The translations under genes and the position numbers were made by a program. DNA of 64,000 nucleotides from a virus: IMG/VR virus record IMGVR_UViG_3300047157_000105, positions 32,001 through 96,000 of that record. One strand, written 5' to 3'. Of the stretch, positions 14,981-43,011 are shown piece by piece (within the stretch, counting starts at the first letter, position 1; each line of letters begins with the position of its first letter). Below the pieces are notes generated by a model that was given only the letters and a program-made list of their open reading frames with translations, did not search any database and was not told where the DNA came from.

Positions 14981-15562
14981 ATGCCTGAAAAAATTAAACC
15001 TCGTGATAAACCCCATTACGTAAACAATAGAGACTTCTCATATGCAGTTGTTGAATATGTTGAGAAAGCAAATGCGGCAAAAGAAAGTGGAGAGAAGAAT
15101 CCAGTTGTACCTGATTATATCGCAATATGTTTTATGAAGATCTGCGAAGGATTATCTCATAAGCCAAACTTTGTAAGATATACATATCGAGATGAGATGG
15201 TCATGGATGGAGTTGAGAATTGTTTAAAAGCAATATACAACTATAGAATAGATGCAAGCACAAGAACTGGTAAGCCTAATGCATTCTCATATTTTACACA
15301 GATAGCTTACTTTGCTTTTATACGTAGAATTGTAAAAGAAAAGAAACAAGCTGATATCAAATTTAAATTCATGGAGCAAGCAAACATTGAAGAGTTTGTA
15401 TCTGCTATTGATATGAACAGTCCAATCGATCAAACATTCCTTGATACACTTCGTGAAAAGATTTCAAAGATTCAAGAGATTGATAAGCAAGTAAAAGACT
15501 TTGCAAAGGAAGAGAAGGAAAAGAAAAAGAAAGGATTAGAATTACACATGGCTTATGCATAA
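14981..15562 (+). CDS. gp55: late transcription sigma factor
   Basis: HYVNN, NFVRYTYRDEMVMDGVENC, NAFSYFTQIAYFAFIRRI. Confidence 0.97.
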   Translation: MPEKIKPRDKPHYVNNRDFSYAVVEYVEKANAAKESGEKNPVVPDYIAICFMKICEGLSHKPNFVRYTYRDEMVMDGVENCLKAIYNYRIDASTRTGKPNAFSYFTQIAYFAFIRRIVKEKKQADIKFKFMEQANIEEFVSAIDMNSPIDQTFLDTLREKISKIQEIDKQVKDFAKEEKEKKKKGLELHMAYA

Positions 15563-16490
15563 AATATATATTACTGGTATCGCTGGTTTTATTGGGTTTC
15601 ATTTAGCAAAAAAATTAGCTGAGGAAGGCTATGAAGTTGCAGGCTTAGATAACTTTAATGGCTATTATGATACACAATTAAAGTATGATAGATCATCAAT
15701 ATTGCATACACAATATGGTATTATTACAGATGCACATAGTTTAGATACTCAATATTGTGGTGCATTAAATTTATTAAAAGAACCAGTTGTACATGATTAT
15801 GATGCAGTTATTCATTTGGCTGCATATGCTGGTGTCCGACACTCACTAGAGAATCCCCAAACCTATATTGATAATAATATAACAGGTACACAAAAATTAA
15901 TTACAACATGTGAAGAACATGGAATACCTGTTATATATGCATCATCATCTTGTGTAGATTCTGATCATCTTAATCCTTATGCTTGGTCTAAATATGTGAA
16001 TGAAAAACAATTTGAGACATCTAAATTACTTTCAAGCGGCTTGAGGTTTTATACGGTTTACGGAGAGTATGGTAGACCTGATATGGCTTTACATACATTC
16101 GCAGATCTTATGTCTCAAGGTAAAGCAATAGACATCTATAACCATGGTGATATGCAACGTGACTTTACTTATATCGGTGATTTAGTTGATGGCATTGAAA
16201 TTATATTAGAGTATATGCTCAATCAGCCTCAAGAGAATCAACATGAAATCTATAATCTTGGTACAGGTAAATCAAATGAGCTTATGGATTATATAGAATG
16301 TTTAGAGAATGAATTAGGAAGAGTGGCATTAAAAAACTATTTGCCTATGCATCCTGCCGATGTTAAATCTACACAAGCAAATATAGGTAAGGCTCAATCA
16401 TTAGGATATAACCCAAAGGTGTCAATCCAAGAAGGAATTAAACACTTTGCAGACTGGTTTAAAGATTACCACAAAGGTATGTACTTTTAA
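15555..16490 (+). CDS. NAD-dependent epimerase, UDP-glucuronate 4-epimerase-like
   Basis: TGIAGFIG, HLAAYAGVRHS, YxxxK, FYTVYGEYGRPDMA, RDFTY. Confidence 0.88.
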   Translation: MHKIYITGIAGFIGFHLAKKLAEEGYEVAGLDNFNGYYDTQLKYDRSSILHTQYGIITDAHSLDTQYCGALNLLKEPVVHDYDAVIHLAAYAGVRHSLENPQTYIDNNITGTQKLITTCEEHGIPVIYASSSCVDSDHLNPYAWSKYVNEKQFETSKLLSSGLRFYTVYGEYGRPDMALHTFADLMSQGKAIDIYNHGDMQRDFTYIGDLVDGIEIILEYMLNQPQENQHEIYNLGTGKSNELMDYIECLENELGRVALKNYLPMHPADVKSTQANIGKAQSLGYNPKVSIQEGIKHFADWFKDYHKGMYF

Positions 16491-16507
16491 ACAATTTGTG
16501 TTATAAT
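16480..16507 (+). promoter_or_regulatory. early/middle promoter giving a probably leaderless mRNA
   Basis: TGTACT-N16-TATAAT, ATG 7 nt downstream. Confidence 0.75.
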
Positions 16508-16514
16508 ATACAGA

Positions 16515-17306
16515 ATGGAACGACGATTATTAATAATAGGATATGGCGTAGTAGGCAGAGCTGTATTCACAGGTTTAATTAGAGATAAAAATAATACTAT
16601 AGATGTATTAGATAGACCTGCTGGTTATGACTTACCTGATTTAAAATATTCAGATTATGATGGTGTTATATTATGTTTACCTACACCCGAAGGGCCAATG
16701 GGTGAATGTGATGACATGATGGTAGAGCAGTATCATAGAGATATTAGATCTGAATTGCCATGGATACCTATTCTTATTAAGTCAACTATATCACTTGAAT
16801 TAATTAAATTACTTGAAGACGATATGGCTCTTACATATAATCCAGAATTTTTAAGAGAGGATGGCGGAGATGAACAATTTATAAAACAAGACTTTGCAAT
16901 ATTTGGTGGTAGCAATTCACGATTTTGGTATTATGTATATGTTAATGCTGATATAACAATGAGCAAAGTAAGATTTACATCTTTAATTAATGCAGGATAT
17001 GCTAAGTATGCAATCAATACATTCCTTGCCACAAAGGTTGTATTCTTTAATGAATTAAGAAATATGTATTCTGATGAGAGATTTGATGAGTTAACAGATC
17101 TTATATCACTTGATGAAAGAATAGGCAATAGCCATATGATGGTTCCTGGGCCTGATCAAAAATACGGATTTGGTGGTAAGTGTTTTCCAAAAGATACAAG
17201 TGCATTTGCAGTATCTGCAAGAAGTATTGGATCACCATTAAAGCTTTTAGAAAAAGCTATAGATATAAACAAGGAGTTAAGAGATGAAAATAGCTTTATT
17301 AAATGA
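16515..17306 (+). CDS. UDP-glucose/GDP-mannose 6-dehydrogenase family (short form)
   Basis: GYGVVG, CLPTP, IKST, NPEFLRE, GFGGKCFPKD. Confidence 0.9.
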   Translation: MERRLLIIGYGVVGRAVFTGLIRDKNNTIDVLDRPAGYDLPDLKYSDYDGVILCLPTPEGPMGECDDMMVEQYHRDIRSELPWIPILIKSTISLELIKLLEDDMALTYNPEFLREDGGDEQFIKQDFAIFGGSNSRFWYYVYVNADITMSKVRFTSLINAGYAKYAINTFLATKVVFFNELRNMYSDERFDELTDLISLDERIGNSHMMVPGPDQKYGFGGKCFPKDTSAFAVSARSIGSPLKLLEKAIDINKELRDENSFIK

Positions 17307-29073: not shown

Positions 29074-31586
29074 ATGAATCAAAACTTTTATACGTCAGCC
29101 TTTCGGCATGGAAAGGTCATTAAATATTTGGGCTATGAGAATGGTGAGAAAGTAAAGTTCACTGTTCCGTATCGCCCGACTCTATTTGTCACAAGCAAAC
29201 AAAACAATGCACATGATTGGCATTCCCTAGATGGTAAACCAGTAGAACCTATTCAGTTCGGTTCTATGGGAGAAGCCACTGACTTTATTAAGTCTTATGC
29301 AGATGTTCCTGGCTTTGATGTCTATGGCAATACCAACTATGTTGTTCAGTATCTTAATGAAGAGTTCCCTGGTGTAATCAAATGGGATCGTAACACAATC
29401 AATGTTACCTCTATCGATATCGAAACAAAGTTCGGTGATGGTTTCCCTGAGCCTAAAGATGCTGACCAGGAAGTGACAGCAATCACAATGAAGAATAACA
29501 TCGATGATACCTATTACACATTTGGTTGTGGTGAGTATGATGTAGAGAATTCTCTTATGCAAACACATTCGGTCGTTTATGTCAAGTGTGCTGACGAGAG
29601 AGAACTCTTACACAAATTTGTTTATCATTGGTCTAAGACTTCCCCTGATATTGTTACAGGTTGGAACTGTGAGTTCTTTGATATACCATATCTAGTAAAC
29701 CGTATTAGACGCATCTTTGATAATGGTCGTGAGAAGTTCCTATCTCCATGGCGAATGATTGATGAGCGTGAGACACATACTGGTTATGGTCAATCCACAC
29801 TTAAATACGAAATCAAAGGTGTAGCCATCTTAGATTACATGGCAATATTCAAGAAGTTCGGTTATTCGTATGGTCCACAAGAATCATATAAGTTAGATCA
29901 TATTGCAAATATTGTTCTCGGTGAGAAGAAGCTTGACTTCGGTGAAGCATCTGACCTTAATGAATTGCATGCAAATGACTATCAAAAGTTTATTGACTAT
30001 AACATCAAAGACGTAGAACTCATCGACCGTATGGAAGACAAGCTCGGTCTTATTAGTCTATGTCTTACCATGGCTTATAAAGGTGGTGTAAACTATGAGC
30101 AAGTGCTTGGCACTGTGGCTATATGGGATTCACTGATCTATCGTGACTTACATGCTAAGCGTATAGCTGTACCACAAAACGAAGAGTCATTTAAAGGTGC
30201 ATATCCTGGCGGTTATGTAAAAGAACCACATGTTGGTATGCATGATTGGGTATGTTCATTTGACTTAGCTTCTCTATATCCGTCAATCATTATGCAATAC
30301 AATATGTCTCCAGAGACTATCCTACTTGATGATGAGCCTGGTGTGAATGTAGAATCAGTCTTAGCTGGTCATATAAAGAATAATACACCAAACACGGCAT
30401 TAGCTGTAAACGGTGTTCGTTTCGATACAAAGAAGCTCGGTATTATTCCAGCCATTATCCAAGAGATCTATAATGATCGTCAAACATTTAAACAAGCACA
30501 ACTCAAAGCTGAGCAAGAGCTCGAGCTATGTGGTGTAAAGTCAGAGGTCTATGCCTTAGAGAAACGTATTGCTATTGCCAAGAACCAACAAATGGCATTA
30601 AAGATCCTACTCAACTCTTTGTATGGTGCAATGGGTAATAAGTGGTTTAGATATTTCGACATGCGTATTGCCGAAGGTATCACACTTACTGGTCAAGCAA
30701 CCATTCGTTGGGCAGAGAATAACTTGAATGATTACCTTAACAAAACCTTACAAACTAAAAAAGATTATGTAGTTGCTATTGATACCGACTCTGTCTATGT
30801 TTGTCTTGACGAGTTTGTTAAACGTCTTGGTCCAGCCAAGCCGGTAGACTTCCTTGACCAAGTATGTTCAGGTGCATTAGAAGGTGCACTCACTGAATGC
30901 TATGATCGTTTATTTAAAACACTAGGCGGTATAGAAAACAAAATGGTTATGGAACGTGAGGTAATTGCTGATCGTGGCATATGGACTGCCAAGAAGAGAT
31001 ACATACTCAATGTGCATGACAATGAAGGTGTTCGTTATGCTCAACCTAAATTAAAGATTATGGGTATCGAGGCAATCAAATCATCTACACCAGCTATATG
31101 TAGACAAGCCCTCAAAGATATCTTTCGCAGGATCATTGAGACTGATCAGGCAACCGTACAATCAGACATAGCAAACTTTAAAGCAGCATTTAAACAAGCG
31201 TCTGCCGAAGAGGTAAGCTTTCCTCGTGGTGTAAACAATCTAAATAAATGGACCGATAGGGAAAACATTTACAAGAAGGGAACACCTATTCATATTCGTG
31301 GTGCAATACTACACAATAATCTTATTACAAAACAAAATTAGGTAGAAGTATTCAGAAGATAACTAGTGGTGACAAGGTCAAGTTTACATATCTTGTCAAG
31401 CCGAATCCAATCAAAGAGAATGTGATTGCATTTGTAGATTATCTCCCACGTCAATTTAAACTTGAGAAATATATAGATTATAACCTACAGTTCGAGAAGA
31501 CATTCTTGGGTGCAATCGAACCGGTATTAGAAGCAGTTGGATGGACCAGTGAGCATGAAGTATCATTGGAAGATTTTTTTGTTTAA
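29074..31586 (+). CDS. gp43: family B DNA polymerase; frameshift near 31335 (one A missing)
   Basis: DIET exonuclease, DLASLYPS, KILLNSLYG, IDTDS. The -1 frame continues LGRSIQKITSGDKVKFTYL…SLEDFFV* to 31586, ending in a clamp-binding motif. Confidence 0.96.
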
Positions 31587-31666: not shown

Positions 31667-32326
31667 ATGTCAGCAGATTGGGTAAACGATATTAATCGTA
31701 TGCATAACAAATATGGTGTACGTGATTGGATAAATCATGCCACACCATTTCAATTAAAGAAGTTCTTAGAATTTCGTTTAGACTTTATCAAAGAAGAGTA
31801 TGATGAAACACGTGAAGCATTAATTATGGAAGATAGTGAAGAGATCGTAGATGGTCTTATCGACTTATGTGTTGTAGCTATCGGTACATTAGATGCTATG
31901 GGTATTAATGCTCATAAAGCATGGGATGAAGTATATCAAGCAAACATGGCAAAAGAAGTTGGTGTAAAAGAATCACGTCCAAATCCATTAGGTTTACCAG
32001 ATCTAATTAAGCCAGAAGGTTGGACAGCACCTGTACACTTTCCTAATTATGGTATATTAGAATCAGCATGGAGTGATGAAATTACCAAGAGAGCCATGGC
32101 AGCGAATGCTGCAAGAACAGAATTAGTAGGTGAAAATCCAGAGATTAATTCTCAATGGACACCAGATGCAGAAAAGCGTATGGATATTATTGGTCAAAAT
32201 GGTAATGATGGTTTGCATTATACACCTGGACCAGGACCATTAGATGGTACACAAGCAAAGATAGATTGGACTAAAGATTCGGAGTACATAAGATTATATG
32301 GCACAGCAGAAGATCCAAAAGTCTAA
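31667..32326 (+). CDS. MazG/PRA-PH-like NTP pyrophosphohydrolase (candidate dCTPase)
   Basis: EEYDE…EIVDGLID; VYQANMAK; DLIKPEGW. Confidence 0.8.
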   Translation: MSADWVNDINRMHNKYGVRDWINHATPFQLKKFLEFRLDFIKEEYDETREALIMEDSEEIVDGLIDLCVVAIGTLDAMGINAHKAWDEVYQANMAKEVGVKESRPNPLGLPDLIKPEGWTAPVHFPNYGILESAWSDEITKRAMAANAARTELVGENPEINSQWTPDAEKRMDIIGQNGNDGLHYTPGPGPLDGTQAKIDWTKDSEYIRLYGTAEDPKV

Positions 32327-32453
32327 TTTTAATTATCGTAGATGGTTGCTTATATACAAAGGCAAAGATCTAGATAAGTTGACAGTTGAAGAGCATACTA
32401 AGTTTAGTAAGCAATTCGCTGCTTGGAAAGTAGGTAACATTGAGAAAGTATGA
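32298..32453 (+). CDS. hypothetical protein, 51 aa (not in ORF track)
   Basis: MAQQKIQKSNFNYRRWLL…; fills the gap and overlaps the next ATG. Confidence 0.5.
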   Translation: MAQQKIQKSNFNYRRWLLIYKGKDLDKLTVEEHTKFSKQFAAWKVGNIEKV

Positions 32454-33376
32454 ACTATTCCCTTACATTATTTAAAAGTATATTCGATAACAAGACTGAC
32501 AAACGTATGGACTTTACGTCATATGCACAGTTTGAAGGTTTGTTATTTGATCTAGCCCAGCAGAAGCGTGAAGATAAGAAGTCGGCTCCCCTTATATCTC
32601 CTGCAACCTATGTAGAAGGTACGACTCGTGCAAATGATAATGTAATCGGTTGGGCTGGTTGGTGCGCGGTAGATGTAGATGAACATGTATTCGATGGTAG
32701 TCTTGAGCAAGAACTATTAGATCGTTATGGAAAATGGAATCATGTTGTTTACTCTACTGCTTCATCAACTCAAGAGCATCCTAAGTTTAGAATAGTATTT
32801 CCACTATCTGTTGATGTACCTAAAGATAAGATTAAACACTTTTGGTTTGCATTAAATAAAGAGTTAGGTGACATTGGTGATCCTCAAACAAAAGATCTAT
32901 CACGTATGTATTATGTTCCAGGCAAGTATAAAGATGCATACAATTTTATATTTAATAATTTCTGTGGTGTAGATATGGATCCATATGAGATTATGGCAAA
33001 GCATGATTACGTTGAGCGTAGTGGTTCATTATTAGATAATCTACCACCTGAAATACGTAAGGCTATGCTGGCACACCGTAAGAATGAAATGGTAAACACA
33101 AATGTGACATGGAGTAATTACAAAGATTGTCCATTTGTTAATAAGAAGTTAGTGAAAGAGTATAATGAAATCACTGACACAGGCTGGTATACAAAGATGT
33201 ATGCCATCATGGTTTCAATTGCAGGTAATGCGATACGTAACAAATATCCTATTACTGCACAAGAGATCACTACATTATGCAAGGAGATAGACTATGAAAA
33301 CGGCAATTGGTACAAGACAAGACCATTCGACAAGGAGGCAGATCGTGCAATCGAATTTGTTTACAGCAACGGATGA
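32450..33376 (+). CDS. AEP-superfamily primase/primase-polymerase-like protein with PriCT-like C-terminus
   Basis: AVDVD (DxD); YSTASS…PKFRIVFPL; D…SRMYYVP. Confidence 0.7.
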   Translation: MNYSLTLFKSIFDNKTDKRMDFTSYAQFEGLLFDLAQQKREDKKSAPLISPATYVEGTTRANDNVIGWAGWCAVDVDEHVFDGSLEQELLDRYGKWNHVVYSTASSTQEHPKFRIVFPLSVDVPKDKIKHFWFALNKELGDIGDPQTKDLSRMYYVPGKYKDAYNFIFNNFCGVDMDPYEIMAKHDYVERSGSLLDNLPPEIRKAMLAHRKNEMVNTNVTWSNYKDCPFVNKKLVKEYNEITDTGWYTKMYAIMVSIAGNAIRNKYPITAQEITTLCKEIDYENGNWYKTRPFDKEADRAIEFVYSNG

Positions 33377-33803
33377 ATGGTTAATTCAATGTTGGAATAA
33401 AAAAGATTTATATAATATTCCAGGAGGACCATTATATGAATTTCCTGAATTTGCTCAAGTGGCAAATCCAGATAATATAGAAGTATTTCCAAGTGACGGA
33501 GTTTGGGAATGGGATACGACTGAAGGTGAAGATCGTAATGATTATGGATATTATTCATCAGATGGCATGTCAATTGAAACTCCAAAAATGTCGAAAGTAA
33601 CAAATGCAAAACTAGGTATAATAACTCATTTTAAACCATGGCACTTTGGTCAAGATGAAGAAAAATGGGTAGAGAAATTTTCAACTTGGGATGTTGAAGC
33701 AGGTGAACAATTTCCATATATAATACTTGGAAAAATTCCAGCATTAGAAGTATTAGAATATTGTAACAAAAATAAAACAAAAAGATATGTACTTCCGCTG
33801 TAA
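33294..33803 (+). CDS. hypothetical protein (start uncertain)
   Basis: Open frame, AT-rich, no recognised motif. Confidence 0.5.
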   Translation: MKTAIGTRQDHSTRRQIVQSNLFTATDEWLIQCWNKKDLYNIPGGPLYEFPEFAQVANPDNIEVFPSDGVWEWDTTEGEDRNDYGYYSSDGMSIETPKMSKVTNAKLGIITHFKPWHFGQDEEKWVEKFSTWDVEAGEQFPYIILGKIPALEVLEYCNKNKTKRYVLPL

Positions 33804-33816
33804 AGTGTGGTATAAT
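33788..33816 (+). promoter_or_regulatory. early/middle promoter of the DNA-modification operon
   Basis: TGTACT-N17-TATAAT. Confidence 0.8.
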
Positions 33817-33842
33817 ATACACATATCAATCGAGGAGTAAAC

Positions 33843-34181
33843 ATGCAAAAAGAATCAATCATAGTTCTGCAAGAATGTGCAGAGCTTCAATCTAAAAAGT
33901 CAGAAGACTATCAAAACCCAAATTCACAAGTAAAACAAGCAATGCATTATCGTCGCGGTGTCGATTCTATTCATGACACTATGCACGGCAAAATGCTTCG
34001 TGCTCAGTCTTTACTTGAATCCGGTCAAGCTAATAACTTTGAATCACTCGAAGACACATACAAAGATCTTATTAACTATGCATCATTTGCTGTAGCTTAT
34101 ATTCGTGGCAAGATGGAAGGTCAAGATCCTTCACTAGATTACTTAAACAATCCTAAATCAAATGTTGATACGTCCGTATAA
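33843..34181 (+). CDS. nucleotide modification associated domain 1 (DUF1599-like)
   Basis: KKSEDY…ESLEDTYKDLINYA pattern; adjacent to the hydroxymethylase. Confidence 0.75.
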   Translation: MQKESIIVLQECAELQSKKSEDYQNPNSQVKQAMHYRRGVDSIHDTMHGKMLRAQSLLESGQANNFESLEDTYKDLINYASFAVAYIRGKMEGQDPSLDYLNNPKSNVDTSV

Positions 34182-34851
34182 AGTCACTGACGTTCGTGAC
34201 TACTTCATTGGTGCCAAGCAAGGTGGTGGCTACGGTCAGACTATAGATAAGACTGGTGTAAAGTGTATTGAATTAATCGGTGCATCATTTCTAGCAGATG
34301 AACCTGCAATATTTGGTACACCTAATGATGAATATATTAAAAAAGAAATCGACTGGTATAAATCACAGTCAAGAAACATTAATGACATATATGGAATAGG
34401 TTCTATGCCACCAGCAGCATGGCAATATGCAGCAAACAAAGATGGTATGATTAATTCTAATTATGGTTATCTAATATGGTCAAGTGATAATGGCAATCAA
34501 TATGATAAGTGTTTAGCTGAATTAAAATCTAATCCTAATTCACGTAGAGCTCTTATGATTTATAATAGACCGGAGATATGGGATGAGTATAATCTTGAAG
34601 GTATGTCAGATTTTATATGTACTAATTCAGTAGCTTACTATATTCGTAATGATGAATTACATTGTTCAGTCTCCATGAGATCTAACGATGTCGTATATGG
34701 ATATAAGAATGATTACGCATGGCAACAATATGTACTAAATGAATTAGCTAATGATTTGAATATTGAACCGGGTAATATGATATGGCAAGTACAAAACTTG
34801 CATGTCTATGAAAAACATTTTGATTTAGTTAAACCAAAGAGATATGCCTAA
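34162..34851 (+). CDS. gp42: dCMP hydroxymethylase (thymidylate synthase fold)
   Basis: INSNYG, SDFICTN, MRSNDVVYGYKND (Asp at the site equivalent to T4 D179), LHVYEKHF. Confidence 0.88.
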   Translation: MLIRPYKVTDVRDYFIGAKQGGGYGQTIDKTGVKCIELIGASFLADEPAIFGTPNDEYIKKEIDWYKSQSRNINDIYGIGSMPPAAWQYAANKDGMINSNYGYLIWSSDNGNQYDKCLAELKSNPNSRRALMIYNRPEIWDEYNLEGMSDFICTNSVAYYIRNDELHCSVSMRSNDVVYGYKNDYAWQQYVLNELANDLNIEPGNMIWQVQNLHVYEKHFDLVKPKRYA

Positions 34852-35881
34852 ACAGTGGTTAAATGAAGAAGCACTTGATGTGCTAGTTAATTATTACTAT
34901 CCTAAAGCTGGATGGTTACAAGACAATGTCAATTGGGGAACACTTGATTACGAGGGTCCAGAAGCAAATGAGATTATTAATGATCCTTTACTCCAGAAGA
35001 TAGACATCTATGATTGTAAACATAGAGCAGCCGCTGGTTTCTCTAATGTATTACAAGACTTACGGTTTGGTTCAAAGACTCCTAAATGGAGATGGCAAAA
35101 CGAAAGACGTAGAGAGATTAATACTTGGAATGATCAAATCACATGGGGAGTATCCACATGGCTTTTTGTTATGATGTGTCACCGTATTACAGGTTCGGGT
35201 GCATCATTTGAGAATGACCACGGATACCGTAACAATATTATACAGTATTGGGGTACACAGTTTGGTAAGGACGGTGTACATCAGATGTGTGAAGATCTGG
35301 TAAAAAGAAAAGAGGAAGGACCAATATTTACTTCTATTGGTAACCAACCACCTGCTCCAAAGAAGGGCACGAGCAATGTAGACTTTATGACAAAAGAACT
35401 ACCACCACTAATTTATAAATTTACCGATTGGTTATTATATGAAAAGATAGACGGTAAAGAAATGAAGACACATAAACAAATTGTTGATTATTTAAATGAA
35501 TATAATAAATCAGCAGGACATAGAAAGTTTAACTTCCAATATGCAGCATTCTCTATGGATTGCTCAGACTATTTTCCTGAAGCAGTAGATAAAGATTCAC
35601 ATACATACTTAGGCAACAACGCTGTTCGTTGTTTAAAGAAGTTATCATCTGGATATAGTCATGATGAGTTCATGAATATATTAAGAGAACGTACAGGCGG
35701 AAGACCAAAAGATCTTGAAGATGTTATGTGTGACTTTGTAAGGTTTGGTCAGAATTATGTACCAAGAGGTAACGGCACATTTGACCATATTCCTAGCACT
35801 ATAACTAATAACAGCGGATGGGTATCTGGTTGGAAGCAAAGACAAGGTACACCACCACAAACTAATACACTACCAATATAA
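34844..35881 (+). CDS. aGPT-Pplase-superfamily (HhH-like) DNA base-modifying protein
   Basis: LGNNAVRCL and DLEDVMCDFVRF resemble the GPGAxRGL and DIExxLCEFxKY motifs; operon context. Confidence 0.6.
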   Translation: MPKQWLNEEALDVLVNYYYPKAGWLQDNVNWGTLDYEGPEANEIINDPLLQKIDIYDCKHRAAAGFSNVLQDLRFGSKTPKWRWQNERRREINTWNDQITWGVSTWLFVMMCHRITGSGASFENDHGYRNNIIQYWGTQFGKDGVHQMCEDLVKRKEEGPIFTSIGNQPPAPKKGTSNVDFMTKELPPLIYKFTDWLLYEKIDGKEMKTHKQIVDYLNEYNKSAGHRKFNFQYAAFSMDCSDYFPEAVDKDSHTYLGNNAVRCLKKLSSGYSHDEFMNILRERTGGRPKDLEDVMCDFVRFGQNYVPRGNGTFDHIPSTITNNSGWVSGWKQRQGTPPQTNTLPI

Positions 35882-36756
35882 TGCCACACAATAAACATGT
35901 AGAAGATGGGTTCAATATCGATGTCGGTATGATGCAACCTGATGAAGCAAAGAATTATTATTTAGATCTTGCAGGTGATTGGGAAGATCCTAATCCAGCT
36001 CCACGTATTGTTGAGCATGAAGGTATTCGAGTTGTAAGAGATGATGACTTAGTTGGATCGAAGGTCCGAGGTGGTGATTGTTTAATATCAAGTATTAAAG
36101 AAGATACTATTGTGTATGTGCAACCAAGGACTGGTTTAGCTGGTGTAAGTATATTAGATGTAGCAAAGAGACATAATAAAGCTGTAAGATTATTTATGCC
36201 ATCATCTAAAAAGATCTCACATCACCAAGCATGTTGCATAGAACAAGGAGCAGAAGCATCCTTCCATCGTATTGCAGCTATGCCTAATCTAAATAAGATA
36301 GCAAAAGACTGGGCTGATCAGAATCCAAATGCATTCTTTGTGCCATTAGGACTGAAACATAAATTAGTCACCGCTGGAATGGTGAAGGTTGCTAGTAAGA
36401 TTAAAGAGCCTGAACTGGTGTATGTTGCTACTTCGACAGGTGTACTTACAAGATCTCTACAGATTGCTTGGCCTAATGCCGAGTTTGTCTCTGTTGCTGT
36501 AAGTAGAAACATGAAGGCTGGTGAATTAGGTAGAGCAAAGGTTATATCTGAGCCACGGGCTTTCACGGCTCATGAGAGTAAAGAGAACTTACCACCATTT
36601 CCAAACATAGATACTTACGATGGTAAGGTATGGAAATATATTCCTAAACATTCTGGTAAAGATATATTATTTTGGAATGTAGGTAAAGAACCAGAATTAC
36701 ACGATGATACAATATATGAAACTGAAAGCTATAGAGATTGGGATAAGAACTTATGA
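35881..36756 (+). CDS. fold-type II PLP-dependent enzyme
   Basis: VRDDDLVGSKVRG (PLP lysine), ATSTG phosphate loop, YDGK, LFWNVG. Confidence 0.8.
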   Translation: MPHNKHVEDGFNIDVGMMQPDEAKNYYLDLAGDWEDPNPAPRIVEHEGIRVVRDDDLVGSKVRGGDCLISSIKEDTIVYVQPRTGLAGVSILDVAKRHNKAVRLFMPSSKKISHHQACCIEQGAEASFHRIAAMPNLNKIAKDWADQNPNAFFVPLGLKHKLVTAGMVKVASKIKEPELVYVATSTGVLTRSLQIAWPNAEFVSVAVSRNMKAGELGRAKVISEPRAFTAHESKENLPPFPNIDTYDGKVWKYIPKHSGKDILFWNVGKEPELHDDTIYETESYRDWDKNL

Positions 36757-37697
36757 TTACAGGAACATTTAATAAAATACCACGTAAGAAGAATAGTCAT
36801 GGATATGGCTGGGCCAGAACATGGGCAGAGAATCTTATGACAACAATTAACCATGAGGGAGATCCTGTTGAGATATTATACTTAGACCATGGCGTAAACT
36901 TTGGCGGTGGTTTAAATCTATTTGGTGGATTCGATGATAAATTAAAACGAAGAGTAGATAATTTTTTATTAGCTGATAAAGTCTATTCACTTGATATGCC
37001 TATGCCAAGGTATGGTGATATGCTAGCCAAGAGAAAAGATGTGACTGACAAAGAATGGTGTGCTCGTGTTCAAGCTAAATGCGATGGTGCACAAACACTA
37101 CTATCTACAGATCTTGACACAACATGGTTAACCATTGGTGATTCTCATACGGCAGCATTTGCTCCACACGATAGCATGGTCATTAAGACAAATGGTCTTA
37201 CACTCAATGGACAAATTCAATCTAACTTCCAATATGTTCGTGACCATATGGCTAAATGCAATAACTTACAAGGTATCACACTCAGCTTTGGCAATATAGA
37301 TGTAAGACATCACTTATGCAGATTAGGTATTGATCCAAGAGATATGTGGATTAAATTAAAAAGGTTTGGTGATAGCTTGCCAATACCAGTAGAATATTCT
37401 GTACCTTGGCCTATAGAGTTTGAAGGTAGAAGATTACCAAAGACTGGTTATTATAAGAACCAACCATTTTGGGGTACACACTTTGAAAGATCACAAATGC
37501 TTGAAAGAATTCTTGAGACCATGGATATGGTGAGCATGAATAAAGTTATGTATCCGGAAGAGTGGTTAAAGCTTGATCCACAAGATTTTGCAAAGAGAAA
37601 AATGGAAGGCACAAGCTCAGTACATATATCACCAGAAGTTTACAGACGAAAAGAATTTGGTGAAGAGTATGTACTTTTAACAGATTTCATGATATAA
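36753..37697 (+). CDS. hypothetical protein with SGNH/GDSL-like domain
   Basis: IGDSH, FGNIDVRHH, SVHI; occupies the T4 beta-gt position. Confidence 0.55.
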   Translation: MITGTFNKIPRKKNSHGYGWARTWAENLMTTINHEGDPVEILYLDHGVNFGGGLNLFGGFDDKLKRRVDNFLLADKVYSLDMPMPRYGDMLAKRKDVTDKEWCARVQAKCDGAQTLLSTDLDTTWLTIGDSHTAAFAPHDSMVIKTNGLTLNGQIQSNFQYVRDHMAKCNNLQGITLSFGNIDVRHHLCRLGIDPRDMWIKLKRFGDSLPIPVEYSVPWPIEFEGRRLPKTGYYKNQPFWGTHFERSQMLERILETMDMVSMNKVMYPEEWLKLDPQDFAKRKMEGTSSVHISPEVYRRKEFGEEYVLLTDFMI

Positions 37698-37698
37698 T
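37670..37698 (+). promoter_or_regulatory. early/middle promoter of uvsX
   Basis: TGTACT-N17-TATAAT. Confidence 0.8.
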
Positions 37699-37742: not shown

Positions 37743-38786
37743 ATGGATAAATTAGCGAAGAACTCTCGTATCAAAGAGTCTTCCCAACTTGACAAAAGCA
37801 AGTTGTTTAGTAATAAGGACATGGTGACTACACCTGTTCCAATGATTAACGTTGCACTATCAGGTGATCCAGACGGAGGTCTGAGTTCTGGTTTAACAGT
37901 ATTAGCTGGACCATCGAAGCATTTTAAGACTTCTTTTGGCTTGTTAATGGCAGCAGCTTACTTAGATAAGTATGAAGACGCTGTACTGTTGTTTTATGAT
38001 TCAGAGTTTGGTAGCCCGCAACAATATTTTAAGTCGTTCGGTATTGATACTTCCCGCGTACTACATAGTCCCATTACTAATGTAGAAGAGCTGAAGTTTG
38101 ACCTAATTTCTCAGCTCGAGAATATCGAACGCGACGACAAAGTCATTATTATGATTGACTCTGTCGGTAACCTAGCTTCAAAGAAAGAGCTAGAAGATGC
38201 TATGAATGAAAAGTCAGTAGCAGATATGTCGAGAGCAAAAGCTCTCAAAGGTCTATTTAGAATGACAACACCCTACCTAACAATGAGAGATATTCCATTG
38301 ATAGCAATAAACCATACATATCAAGAAATAGGCTTATTTCCGAAGGCGGTCGTATCAGGTGGTACAGGTATTTACTACTCCTCAGATAATATCTGGATCA
38401 TTGGCCGCCAGCAGGAAAAGAAGGGAACAGAAATTACAGGATATAACTTTGTCATTAATGTAGAGAAATCAAGGTTTGTCCGTGAGAAGTCTAAGATTCC
38501 TATTAATGTTACATGGGAAGGTGGTATCGAATCGTATTCAGGTTTATTAGATGTAGCAATAGAAGGTGGATATGTAGTTAAACCATCTAATGGTTGGTAC
38601 TCAAAGGTTGACCGATCTACTGGAGAAGTAGAAGATAAAAAGGTTCGTATTGCACAAACACTTGAAGCAGAGTTTTGGCAAGACATTTTTGCAAAGTCAG
38701 ACTTTAAAGATTATCTTAAAAACAAATATGAAGTTGGTCATGCTGAAATGATTAAACAAGATAACCCTGAGGACTTGGATATTTAA
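37743..38786 (+). CDS. uvsX: RecA-like recombinase
   Basis: AGPSKHFKT, YDSEFG, IDSVGNLAS, GGTG. Confidence 0.97.
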   Translation: MDKLAKNSRIKESSQLDKSKLFSNKDMVTTPVPMINVALSGDPDGGLSSGLTVLAGPSKHFKTSFGLLMAAAYLDKYEDAVLLFYDSEFGSPQQYFKSFGIDTSRVLHSPITNVEELKFDLISQLENIERDDKVIIMIDSVGNLASKKELEDAMNEKSVADMSRAKALKGLFRMTTPYLTMRDIPLIAINHTYQEIGLFPKAVVSGGTGIYYSSDNIWIIGRQQEKKGTEITGYNFVINVEKSRFVREKSKIPINVTWEGGIESYSGLLDVAIEGGYVVKPSNGWYSKVDRSTGEVEDKKVRIAQTLEAEFWQDIFAKSDFKDYLKNKYEVGHAEMIKQDNPEDLDI

Positions 38787-40147
38787 TGCAGATCGAAACA
38801 TTAATCTTACGCAACTTAATGCTTAATGAGGATTATACCAGAACGGTTATTCCTCATTTAAAAACTATATACTTTGAAGATCCATATAGATCGGTATTTA
38901 ACGAGATTGTTGGATTTGTCAATAAGTTTAATAAGCTACCAAGTTCTGATGCACTCAGTATAGAACTAAGGAATAATCCTAAGATCACATCAGATTCTCT
39001 TGCACTTATACCTGAATTGAGTAAACAAGAAACAGAACAAACTCAGGAATGGTTAATCGAAAAGACAGAGAAGTGGTGTCAAGACCGAGCAATCTATTTA
39101 GCAATCATGGATTCAATTAATATTATTGAAGGTAAGCATGATACATTAGATAAGAATGCATTGCCATCTGTATTGAGTGAAGCATTAGGTGTTAACTTTG
39201 ATATGAGGGTTGGTCACGATTATGTTGATGACTCTGATGGACGTTTTGATTTCTATCACAGGCAAGAAGAACACCTACCATTTGACTTAGAAAAGTTTAA
39301 CACAATCACCAAAGGTGGTCTCGTCAAGAAATCTCTTAATGTTGCTTTGGCTGGTACAGGTGTAGGTAAGTCTTTATTTATGTGTCATGTTGCCGCTGGT
39401 GCTTTAACACAGATGAAAAATGTGTTATATATAACTATGGAAATGGCAGAAGAAAGAATAGCTGAACGTATTGATGCTAACCTTATGAATGTGCCTATTG
39501 ACCAGTTAGAGAATCTAAGTAAGGATATGTTTGATAAGAAGATGCATAAGCTTACTGACAAAGGTGTTGGTAAACTTATTGTAAAAGAATATCCTACAGG
39601 AGCTGCAAGTTCTATACACTTTAGAGCATTGCTAAAAGAATTACAGATCAAACGTGACTTCACTCCTGATCTTATTTGTATAGACTATCTAAATATATGT
39701 GCCTCATCAAGAATGAAATCTATGGGTGGTGCAATCAATTCATATATTATGGTGAAAGCAATTGCAGAAGAATTGCGTGGTTTGGCAGTAGAGTATAACT
39801 TACCTATTGTCACGGCCACACAAACAACTCGTTCAGGTTTTGCATCATCTGATGTAGGACTAGAAGATACAAGTGAATCATTTGGTTTACCGGCTACGGC
39901 AGATCTTATGTTTGCACTTATATCTACTGAAGAACTTGAAGCTATGAATCAAATCATGGTAAAACAATTAAAGAATAGGTATAATGATCCTACAGGTGGA
40001 AACAAGAAGTTTGTACTTGGTATTGACAGGGCTAAGATGAGACTGTATGATGTAGAGGATACGGCCCAAACTCTAAATGTAAGAGATGAGCCAGTTAAAG
40101 TTGCACCTAGATATGACACAATAGGGGAGGGATTTACAATTGAGTAG
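38786..40147 (+). CDS. gp41: replicative DNA helicase
   Basis: AGTGVGKS, IDYLNI, SESFGLPATAD, QLKNRY. Confidence 0.97.
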   Translation: MQIETLILRNLMLNEDYTRTVIPHLKTIYFEDPYRSVFNEIVGFVNKFNKLPSSDALSIELRNNPKITSDSLALIPELSKQETEQTQEWLIEKTEKWCQDRAIYLAIMDSINIIEGKHDTLDKNALPSVLSEALGVNFDMRVGHDYVDDSDGRFDFYHRQEEHLPFDLEKFNTITKGGLVKKSLNVALAGTGVGKSLFMCHVAAGALTQMKNVLYITMEMAEERIAERIDANLMNVPIDQLENLSKDMFDKKMHKLTDKGVGKLIVKEYPTGAASSIHFRALLKELQIKRDFTPDLICIDYLNICASSRMKSMGGAINSYIMVKAIAEELRGLAVEYNLPIVTATQTTRSGFASSDVGLEDTSESFGLPATADLMFALISTEELEAMNQIMVKQLKNRYNDPTGGNKKFVLGIDRAKMRLYDVEDTAQTLNVRDEPVKVAPRYDTIGEGFTIE

Positions 40148-42324: not shown

Positions 42325-43011
42325 ATGCAGTCACTCAAAGGTTATCTATCAGAAGGAAGACACGATCCTTCAATATTCAAAGCGGTTTTTATGGCAGGTG
42401 CTCCAGGCGCAGGTAAATCCTTTGTCGCTGAATCTATGGCACTACCCGCCCAATTAGGATATAAAGAAATTAACTCTGATATAGAGTTTACTCGCTATAT
42501 GAAAGATGCAGGATTAGCTGATGAAAATGGTGCAGTTATCCTTGATCCTAAACAAGAATATGAACGTAACGTAATACGTACTGTAGCAAAGAGACATACT
42601 AAAGCCAAACAAGGTCACGCCATGGTAGGTAGATTAGGTCTACTTATTGATGGTACAGGTGCAAATTCTTCTAAAGTATTAACACAAAAGCAAACACTAG
42701 AAGCGCTTGGTTATGAGACATCTATGATATATGTCAAGCTTGGTTTAGAAGGTTCTATTGAATCTGACAGACAGCGGGGTGAAGCAGGTGGAAGATCTAT
42801 CGGACCAGAACTTGTAACCGCCAAATACAATGAATTAGAGAAGAGTTTAAAACCATTGAAGAGATCATTTGGTAAAATGTTTTTCGAGATAGATAATTCA
42901 GTGAGGGAAAAAACACCAGCCCTAATTCGTAAAGTAGAGAATCAAATTAAAAAATGGTCTAAACAATTGCCTAAAAATAAAGCTGCGAAAACATGGATGA
43001 AAAATAACTGA
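42325..43011 (+). CDS. P-loop kinase (AAA_33/zeta-toxin/PNK-like)
   Basis: MAGAPGAGKS, INSD, LLIDGTG. Confidence 0.8.
   Translation: MQSLKGYLSEGRHDPSIFKAVFMAGAPGAGKSFVAESMALPAQLGYKEINSDIEFTRYMKDAGLADENGAVILDPKQEYERNVIRTVAKRHTKAKQGHAMVGRLGLLIDGTGANSSKVLTQKQTLEALGYETSMIYVKLGLEGSIESDRQRGEAGGRSIGPELVTAKYNELEKSLKPLKRSFGKMFFEIDNSVREKTPALIRKVENQIKKWSKQLPKNKAAKTWMKNN

Follow-up and report, generated by a model that had tools for sequence, protein, structure and literature searches.

The 5-hydroxymethylcytosine (hmC) of phage DNA is known to be decorated with sugars (glucose, arabinose and other glycans) or with a carbamoyl group. To our knowledge, hypermodification of the amino-acid type occurs on thymidine only and needs a DNA kinase, and we know of no enzyme with an SGNH fold or a type II pyridoxal phosphate (PLP) fold that acts on DNA bases. 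In T4, hmC is glucosylated by a system of gp42, gp56 and the alpha- and beta-glucosyltransferases (alpha-gt and beta-gt), and the gene order is 43 – imm – 42 – beta-gt – segA – uvsX. The thymidine pathways of phages M6, ViI, PaMx11, PhiW-14 and SP10 use a dUMP hydroxymethylase and a 5-hydroxymethyldeoxyuridine (5-hmdU) DNA kinase, together with an amino-acid:DNA transferase (AADT; aGPT-Pplase2, PF18724), a PLP decarboxylase and other tailoring enzymes (PMC8989533, PMC11472151). Here we describe a five-gene cassette in a 64 000-nucleotide stretch of DNA of an uncultured T4-like phage from the sea; this stretch, the window, is bases 32001–96000 of the 140.5-kb IMG/VR record IMGVR_UViG_3300047157_000105. 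In this cassette, a gp42 ortholog is accompanied by a helical protein (P0002), a PLP-like protein (P0003) and an SGNH-fold protein (P0004), and this trio most likely makes a modified base without prior chemical description. The record is about 78% complete, so the absence of a gene from it is not proof that the phage lacks that gene.

Comparison of the locus with known systems

The cassette consists of five plus-strand open reading frames (ORFs) at 33843–37697, with successive overlaps of 20, 8, 1 and 4 nt. They encode a 112-residue Nmad1/DUF1599 protein, P0005 (33843–34181, Pfam PF07659); a dCMP hydroxymethylase of 229 residues, P0001 (34162–34851); an HhH-superfamily helical protein of 345 residues, P0002 (34844–35881), which is AADT/aGPT-Pplase-like by the fold of its predicted structure; a PLP-like protein of fold type II with 291 residues, P0003 (35881–36756), which is cysteine-synthase-like; and a two-domain protein of 314 residues, P0004 (36753–37697), assigned to the SGNH fold by its predicted structure and a GDSH motif. 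The operon lies between the genes for the family-B DNA polymerase gp43 (29074–31341) and uvsX (37743–38786), with gp41 following at 38786–40147; three additional ORFs separate gp43 from it. P0002, P0003 and P0004 are encoded downstream of gene 42 and upstream of uvsX, so that this trio fills the slot of beta-gt in T4. A preliminary description of this DNA had seen five overlapping genes behind one promoter in the gp43–uvsX interval, at the locus where T4 has gp42 and beta-glucosyltransferase. The coordinates, the overlaps and the motif scan described below agree with this, as does the T4 gene order.

The locus resembles the thymidine pathways in that a hydroxymethylase of the thymidylate synthase (TS) family supplies a 5-hydroxymethylpyrimidine and in the logic of modifying the 5-CH2OH group after replication. 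P0002 is predicted to share the fold of PaMx11 gp46 and has an E-x3-C motif like that around the catalytic Cys247, and the operon includes a PLP-type enzyme. It differs from them in that the base is cytosine, as indicated by Asp184 of P0001, that no DNA kinase or PF18723/PF18724 match was found, that P0002 and P0003 have no detectable sequence kinship with the thymidine enzymes, that the PLP fold is type II, and that the obligate partner is an SGNH-fold protein, which is not known from those pathways. With T4 glucosylation, the locus shares an orthologous gp42 and the position of the modification genes between 42 and uvsX. The target is presumably the same hmC hydroxyl in DNA, and the N-terminal domain of P0004 is possibly, by a weak likeness, related to half of beta-gt. 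Unlike T4, no homolog of a glucosyltransferase, gp56 or gp1 was found in the record, and the folds are SGNH, HhH and PLP in place of the GT-B sugar-nucleotide domain of T4.

Linkage of the trio to dCMP hydroxymethylase

The strongest evidence comes from linkage: the trio is genetically welded to a dCMP hydroxymethylase. We fetched 80 IMG/VR loci with the P0002 family and also considered more distant lineages; the three genes of the trio stay linked in about 100 related contigs. The gp42, HhH, PLP and SGNH genes co-occur in every related locus with sufficient flank, although their order is not fixed. The orders HhH–PLP–SGNH, SGNH–PLP–HhH and PLP–SGNH–HhH are found in the 80 loci, and SGNH–HhH–PLP–TS in the more distant lineages. 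At the N177/D179 site, Asp is encoded by every one of the 82 neighbouring TS genes in which the motif can be seen. No hydroxymethyl-base DNA kinase is found in or beside the cassette in these roughly 100 loci. Furthermore, in loci L085–L087 and in seven metagenomic proteins of 640–790 residues, the SGNH protein is fused N-terminally to a P0002-type domain. The SGNH protein is thus constant with the helical protein and sometimes fused to it, which makes it a core partner and not an accessory or an optional tailoring step.

A second, looser association points in the same direction. In 54 further loci, a stand-alone SGNH homolog is found near a genuine PF18723 helical protein without a kinase domain. 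Two of these loci, L094 and L130, were read in detail, and both have myo-inositol-1-phosphate synthase (MIPS) alongside. These sister cassettes (L094:7395–13174 and L130:8944–13494), which belong to other uncultured T4-like phages, contain an Asp-type TS, a dUTPase-like gene, the SGNH homolog, MIPS, a small ORF and the PF18723 helical protein, which has the motif E-V-x-L-C-Q-Y; an FkbM methyltransferase is present in L130 only. They are like our cassette in having the same SGNH family and a kinase-less helical protein beside an Asp-type TS and DNA polymerase, but their helical protein is a genuine PF18723 member and their third enzyme is MIPS in place of the PLP-like protein, which implies that a different group is attached. 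That the third enzyme varies in this way fits a role for it in making the donor or in tailoring.

Among cultured phages, the T4-like Aeromonas phages 44RR2.8t, 31 and 25 were described by Petrov et al. (PMC2993671) as positive for gp42 and gp56 and negative for glucosyltransferase, with the modification unknown. These phages have a 795-residue protein, ORF233c, with an N-terminal part of 340 residues that falls within the P0004 family (E = 3e-87). Unlike in our cassette, there is no P0003 homolog, and the P0002 and fusion profiles fail to pick up the C-terminal half of 44RR ORF233c; this half gives a sub-threshold HMUDK_hel match with E = 0.0036. In 44RR2.8t (L002:4399–8379, ORF234c and ORF233c), the gene for the 795-residue protein adjoins a sodium:solute symporter gene (PF00474, E = 6e-53).

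The cassette is common: its homologs in marine metagenomes number hundreds to thousands, and IMG/VR has 587 confirmed stretches. Close homologs of P0002 itself number 296 in marine metagenomes and form 143 clusters at 50% identity in a library of 1.8 billion proteins, and near-identical DNA was found in seawater metagenomes of more than a dozen studies. Neither the operon DNA nor P0002 gave anything in 50,697 cultured-phage records, and no cultured phage with a close P0002 homolog was found. For gp43, the closest cultured relatives are Phage C48C1 (51%) and T4-like cyanophages (45%).

Variation around the cassette is seen in some clades. In the SGNH–PLP–HhH clade (L026:750–5184), a gene of the KDO8P/DAHP-synthase family, PEP carboxykinase, a cupin and a small cytidylyltransferase lie between Nmad1 and gp42, and a dCMP deaminase gene lies between gp42 and the SGNH gene.

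The hydroxymethylase and the nucleotide-pool genes

P0001 matches PF00303 with E = 2.4e-21. Against the PDB, its best match is T4 dCMP hydroxymethylase (dCH, 1b49) with E = 1.8e-73, whereas the best true thymidylate synthases give 3e-14. Among cultured phages, the T-even gp42 proteins come closest to it, with an identity of about 54%. The P0001 sequence RSNDVVYGYKND aligns with RSNDVVFGFRND of T4 gp42, which places D184 at the position of T4 D179. Furthermore, T4 E60, S94, Y96 and R123/R124 align with P0001 E62, S99, Y101 and R128/R129, and T4 D145 and C148 align with D150 and C153, the acidic residue being three before the catalytic Cys. The roles of these residues in T4 dCH, whether catalytic or diagnostic of a hydroxymethylase, have been described, including that of D179 in specifying cytosine (PMC6400193). 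P0001 thus keeps the Asp at the position of TS Asn177, the catalytic Cys, the acidic residue and the water-positioning Ser/Tyr pair. From these alignments, the phage is solidly predicted to encode a genuine dCMP hydroxymethylase, a clear ortholog of T4 gp42, and the earlier reading of the TS-fold enzyme as the dCMP type is borne out by both D184 and the best match to T4 dCH. We also considered a dCMP methylase, which we rejected because the hydroxymethylase signature residues are kept and the identity to T4 gp42 is about 54–60%.

The first gene of the operon had been called Nmad1/DUF1599-like, and P0005 does match PF07659 above the cut-off (E = 3.6e-7, 30.9 bits against 25). It also matches phrog_1485 and phrog_18404, annotated as 'hydrolase', and its nearest Atlas clusters have DUF1599. 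The Nmad1 gene is 5' of gp42 in most related loci. Likewise, a plus-strand gene at 31667–32326 for a PRA-PH/MazG-type nucleoside triphosphate pyrophosphatase of 219 residues (Pfam PF01503, E = 6e-10) shows conserved synteny with the module in the majority of related loci. This pyrophosphatase may be a functional stand-in for the dCTPase gp56 of T4.

The helical protein P0002

P0002 has no sequence match in Pfam (even at E = 10), PHROG, NCBIfam or the PDB. The PF18724 and PF18723 profiles have no match anywhere in the record, so that P0002 matches neither, and only one of 63 members of its family reaches E = 0.001 with PF18724. On these searches, P0002 appears to be a new sequence family.

The AlphaFold model of P0002 is all helical, with a predicted local distance difference test (pLDDT) score of 86. 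In BFVD, the model matches proteins of uncultured phages with TM = 0.8 and E = 1e-13, and a match at TM = 0.79 is named 'Amino acid:DNA transferase domain-containing'. Weaker BFVD matches are to Pplase1 and to the helical domains of the 5-hmdU DNA kinases of SP10, PhiW-14 and phiRSL1. Against PDB structures, PaMx11 gp46/PUGT (8z2m) and DUF2419/QNG1 tie at Z = 8.7, followed by AGOG at 8.1; the superposition on 8z2m_A has a root mean square deviation of 3.9 over 204 residues. The top 16 solved matches are all base-flipping enzymes of the HhH-GPD type, namely 15 DNA glycosylases or DUF2419 proteins and PaMx11 gp46. P0002 is thus predicted to have the HhH-GPD-type fold, as do the amino-acid:DNA transferases. 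The region 34844–35881 had been described beforehand as HhH/aGPT-Pplase-like. The HhH fold is present in the model and is like that of PaMx11 gp46, but the closer family assignment was not supported by PF18724, PF18723 or the profile comparisons considered below.

Residues conserved across 63 diverse members of the family include H113, R114, G117, S118, D239, G257, E292, C296 and D297. C296 is nearly invariant and is part of E-D-V-M-C-D-F (E292-x3-C296-D297), which resembles E-T-I-L-C-K-W around Cys247 of gp46; the structural alignment ends 11 residues after each of the two cysteines. In PaMx11 gp46, C247 is the catalytic nucleophile that attacks C6 (PMC11472151). It is plausible that C296 is the corresponding catalytic cysteine of P0002.

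Some related loci have a second, divergent HhH/AADT-like paralog, which is not present in this window. It is represented by a 319-residue protein at L017:8035–8994 that has E = 1e-10 to the family profile and ends in N-V-E-D-K-T-C-F-F. In L016–L020 and L023, this gene separates the first HhH gene from the PLP gene, and in L045 and L068 it is found just upstream of the SGNH gene. This paralog keeps E-D-x-x-C.

The PLP-like protein P0003

P0003 matches phrog_7093, 'threonine dehydratase', with E = 8e-36, and 18 of 20 close homologs match PF00291, the best with 7.5e-8. A profile of the wider family searched against the PDB gave cysteine synthases/OASS in 20 of 23 rows, together with EvgA and two threonine deaminases; a narrow profile gave nothing useful, nor did single-sequence PDB searches with P0002, P0003, P0004 and P0005. 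The invariant K61 in G-S-K-x-R-G of P0003 aligns with the lysine in G-S-I-K-D-R-I-G of CysK. We take the latter to be the Schiff-base lysine for PLP, so that K61 is a candidate PLP lysine. S185-T186-G187 is invariant at the expected place and, by inspection, is a candidate for the PLP-phosphate loop. The description of this gene as encoding a fold-II PLP enzyme therefore agrees with the homologs and with the K61 alignment, but P0003 itself does not match PF00291. Its likeness to cysteine synthases suggests beta-replacement-type chemistry rather than the decarboxylation of the thymidine pathways.

What links such an enzyme to DNA? A tblastn search with P0003 found no match in ViI/M6-type phages. 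The only relatives of P0003 in cultured phages are PALP proteins in Erythrobacter phages R6L and ZS04 and in Microcystis phage Mae-JY30. In R6L and ZS04, the PALP domain is fused to an N6/N4 DNA methylase (R6L gp1, L003:4816–7236), and in Mae-JY30 (L166:4111–5702) the PALP gene directly follows an N6/N4 DNA methylase. The PALP part is above the PF00291 cut-off in both R6L and Mae-JY30, and the PALP–methylase genes of these two are beside ParB/sulfiredoxin genes. These fusions and adjacencies tie the P0003 family to DNA modification. In GenBank, the PALP part in R6L and Mae-JY30 is labelled 'DNA modification methylase'.

The SGNH protein P0004

The model of P0004 has a pLDDT of 86 and shows an N-terminal alpha/beta domain (residues 1–120) followed by an SGNH-fold domain (121–305). 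Foldseek gives a probability of 1.0 to SGNH/GDSL esterases. Residues 121–305 match PDB structures with Z = 10–11 over 150–170 residues, and nearly all of the top 50 structural matches have the SGNH/GDSL fold, mostly esterases and acyltransferases. Invariant in both stand-alone and fused members are G129-D-S131-H, G180-N-I-D183, E285 and S289-V-H291. Of these, G129-D-S131-H is block I, G180-N-I-D183 is block III in a shifted register, and S289-V-H291 is block V, with E285 replacing the Asp. The SGNH-like character first noted from the GDSH motif is thus upheld by the fold predicted for residues 121–305. By sequence, P0004 has no match to a Pfam SGNH family, its family profile gave nothing useful against the PDB, and NCBIfam names none of P0002, P0003 and P0004.

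A P0004 profile of 85 sequences is collinear with residues 2–100 of T4 beta-gt, including the N-F-F-G-G loop, and residues 1–120 may therefore resemble the acceptor- and DNA-binding half of beta-gt, a likeness that is suggestive only. PF09198 has no match, and no beta-gt homolog was found, in the incomplete record. A predicted complex of P0002 and P0004 has a score of 0.00, which counts neither for nor against binding.

Proposed pathway and alternatives

The proposed pathway has two steps. In the first, which is well supported, the gp42 ortholog would convert dCMP to hydroxymethyl-dCMP (hm-dCMP), and hmC would enter the DNA at replication; Nmad1 and the MazG-like pyrophosphatase probably shape the nucleotide pool. 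In the second, P0002, P0003 and P0004 would act on hmC in the DNA after replication. P0004 would bind hmC, possibly through its beta-gt-like N-terminal domain, and esterify the 5-CH2OH group, most likely with an acyl group that turns it into a leaving group. This acylation would take over the role of the DNA kinase in the thymidine pathways. P0002 would then flip the base, and C296 would add to C6, expel the ester and let a nucleophile add, as has been proposed for gp46 (PMC11472151). P0003 would make, load or tailor the nucleophile, which is probably an amino-acid-derived group. Because no hydroxymethyl-base kinase is in or near any cassette, and because the SGNH protein stands beside the helical domain in the place that the P-loop kinase domain has in 5-hmdU DNA kinases, esterification by the SGNH protein is the most economical model. 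From the sequences and the models, we think it probable that hmC within the DNA undergoes further modification by the trio, and hmC in DNA is very probably the target. The specific mechanism of acyl activation is put forward only tentatively. It is similarly no more than a possibility, and one that we would not yet rely on, that this kinase-free route yields a new amino-acid-derived cytosine base, with the SGNH and HhH proteins serving as a general 'socket' for different donor-making enzymes.

Several observations weigh against this pathway. The kinship of P0002 with the amino-acid:DNA transferases is one of fold alone, DUF2419 equals the Z score of gp46, and a Z of 8.7 is middling for a helical protein. 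By hhalign, the P0002 family has no significant match to PaMx11 gp46 (probability 1.5%) or to an alignment of 43 HMUDK_hel sequences, nor to P0509. P0003 alone has no Pfam match, and the matches of its wider profile in the PDB are weak, the best having E = 0.017. The likeness of P0004 to the beta-gt N-terminal domain is also weak, with 7.7 bits, a single-target E of 1e-4 and an hhalign probability of 12%. No acyl donor can be named, and in the searchable literature we found no precedent for an SGNH protein that O-acylates a DNA base. Finally, homologs of T4 gp56 and of the dNMP kinase gp1 were not found in the partial record, which leaves the route from hm-dCMP to hm-dCTP unaccounted for. The preliminary description had proposed that thymidine-type tailoring is applied to hmC, possibly with an acylation or deacylation step. 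The dCMP-type hydroxymethylase, the beta-gt slot, the transferase-like fold, the PLP- and SGNH-type proteins and the linkage to Asp-type TS are in favour of this, but P0002 and P0003 show no sequence kinship with the ViI, M6 and PaMx11 enzymes, no hydroxymethyl-base kinase was found, and the PLP-like protein is cysteine-synthase-like.

Three other explanations were considered. The SGNH protein alone might convert hmC to a simple ester or another small adduct, with the HhH protein as a base-flipping, DNA-binding partner and the PLP-like protein either supplying the donor or acting elsewhere. The constant and sometimes fused pair of SGNH and helical proteins does mirror the architecture of kinase plus HMUDK_hel, the Aeromonas phages have an SGNH-family protein and no P0003 homolog, and the BFVD matches of P0002 include helical domains of 5-hmdU DNA kinases. 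However, E292, C296 and D297 are near-invariant across the P0002 family and their motif recurs in the second paralog, which argues for catalysis over mere binding, and the PLP gene is kept in all P0002-type cassettes. We consider this explanation unlikely. Slightly less likely again is a thymidine-type pathway moved to hmC, in which hmC is phosphorylated by a hydroxymethyl-base DNA kinase whose gene is elsewhere, the HhH protein transfers an amino acid for the PLP-like protein to tailor, and an acyl group is finally put on or taken off by the SGNH protein. The kinase could be encoded at 42325–43011 or in the missing 22% or so of the genome. The former is a P-loop kinase of the Zeta-toxin/AAA_33 type with 228 residues, the sole kinase candidate that we saw. 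Its presence in the window, the incompleteness of the record, and the AADT-like fold and Cys motif of P0002 would all suit such a pathway, but this kinase belongs to a late operon 4.6 kb away, and we found no link between it and the cassette. The record has no PF18723 match, and P0003 is unrelated to the ViI/M6 decarboxylases by tblastn. Moreover, no kinase is in or beside the cassette of the related loci, whereas their SGNH gene is always there and can fuse to the helical domain.

The trio could also act on free nucleotides, in pre-replicative modification or salvage, or on some other metabolite, leaving plain hmC in the virion DNA. DUF2419/QNG1, which ties as the best structural match of P0002, hydrolyses a free nucleotide. 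Cysteine-synthase-like enzymes normally use small molecules, and nucleotide-sugar and KDO-type genes surround the cassette in a related clade. Against this are the strict linkage to Asp-type TS genes, the beta-gt position, the DNA methylases with fused PALP-like domains, the weak likeness of the P0004 N-terminal domain to the DNA-binding half of beta-gt, and the DNA-acting families that form the best viral structural neighbours. We regard it as the least probable of the three, and improbable in itself.

If the pathway that we prefer, in which P0004 activates hmC by esterification, is correct, amino-acid-type chemistry would extend to cytosine by a different route of activation, and the SGNH and fold-II PLP folds would be new to DNA-base modification. 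In the searchable literature, we came across no account of this cassette, of a part played by SGNH proteins in DNA hypermodification or of an amino-acid-type modification of hmC. A survey of pelagimyophages mentions only 'two thymidylate synthases and a dCMP deaminase', and no description of the cassette was found in the literature on DUF1599/Nmad1 function. Since the cassette is common in marine metagenomes, the base could be widespread in viral DNA of the ocean, where it may bias sequencing and restriction-based methods. A modified base would also shape the interactions of the phages with host defences. The pathway would offer a testable explanation for the fate of the hmC of Aeromonas phages 44RR, 31 and 25, which have gp42 and lack a glucosyltransferase, and the cassette could yield new enzymes for site-specific labelling of 5hmC.

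Promoter, transcription and neighbouring genes

A promoter-like element, TATGTAC-N18-TATAAT with a TGn extended −10, is located at 33786–33816 on the plus strand, upstream of the operon. It belongs to a phage-specific motif class, TATGTAC-N17/18-TATAAT, mostly with TGn, of which the window has 17 copies against 0.01 expected, 16 of them on the plus strand. Sites of this class precede genes of the replication and nucleotide groups, gp43 and uvsX among them (e.g., 10078, 29037, 33786, 37668, 41047, 48802 and 61979). In the motif scan of the window, the next copy, also on the plus strand, is at 37668–37698 before uvsX and sets the 3' limit of the operon, with zero copies in between. With a single motif copy upstream, none until uvsX, and overlapping ORFs, it is a fair reading that one promoter drives five coupled genes. 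A generic sigma-70 scan of the window was uninformative, with 25 sites against 22 expected. A tighter variant of the promoter found downstream, TATAATRTACACAT, has 5 copies in the window.

Contigs from RNA libraries of three marine studies, from related strains with 90–99% identity, cover the operon. Some of them bridge gene junctions, and one piece spans 34746–36814. Their similarity to the window starts at 33801–33807, and the upstream ends, although they differ, still hold TATGTAC. These contigs give a weak indication that the operon is transcribed, as carry-over of DNA is possible. Some RNA runs have no cover on parts of the operon, to which we give no weight.

Upstream of the operon, an ORF of 169 residues (33294–33803) overlaps a primase-like ORF (32450–33376) by 83 nt and ends inside the promoter element of the operon. 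It has no family match and is recognisable in few related loci. Far from the operon, at 15555–17306, the window has genes for an NAD-dependent epimerase-like and a UDP-glucose-dehydrogenase-like protein. In a related clade, the same two families are directly downstream of the HhH gene (L026:8027–9774), before uvsX. These genes may be linked to the modification or may have a separate function in surface glycans.

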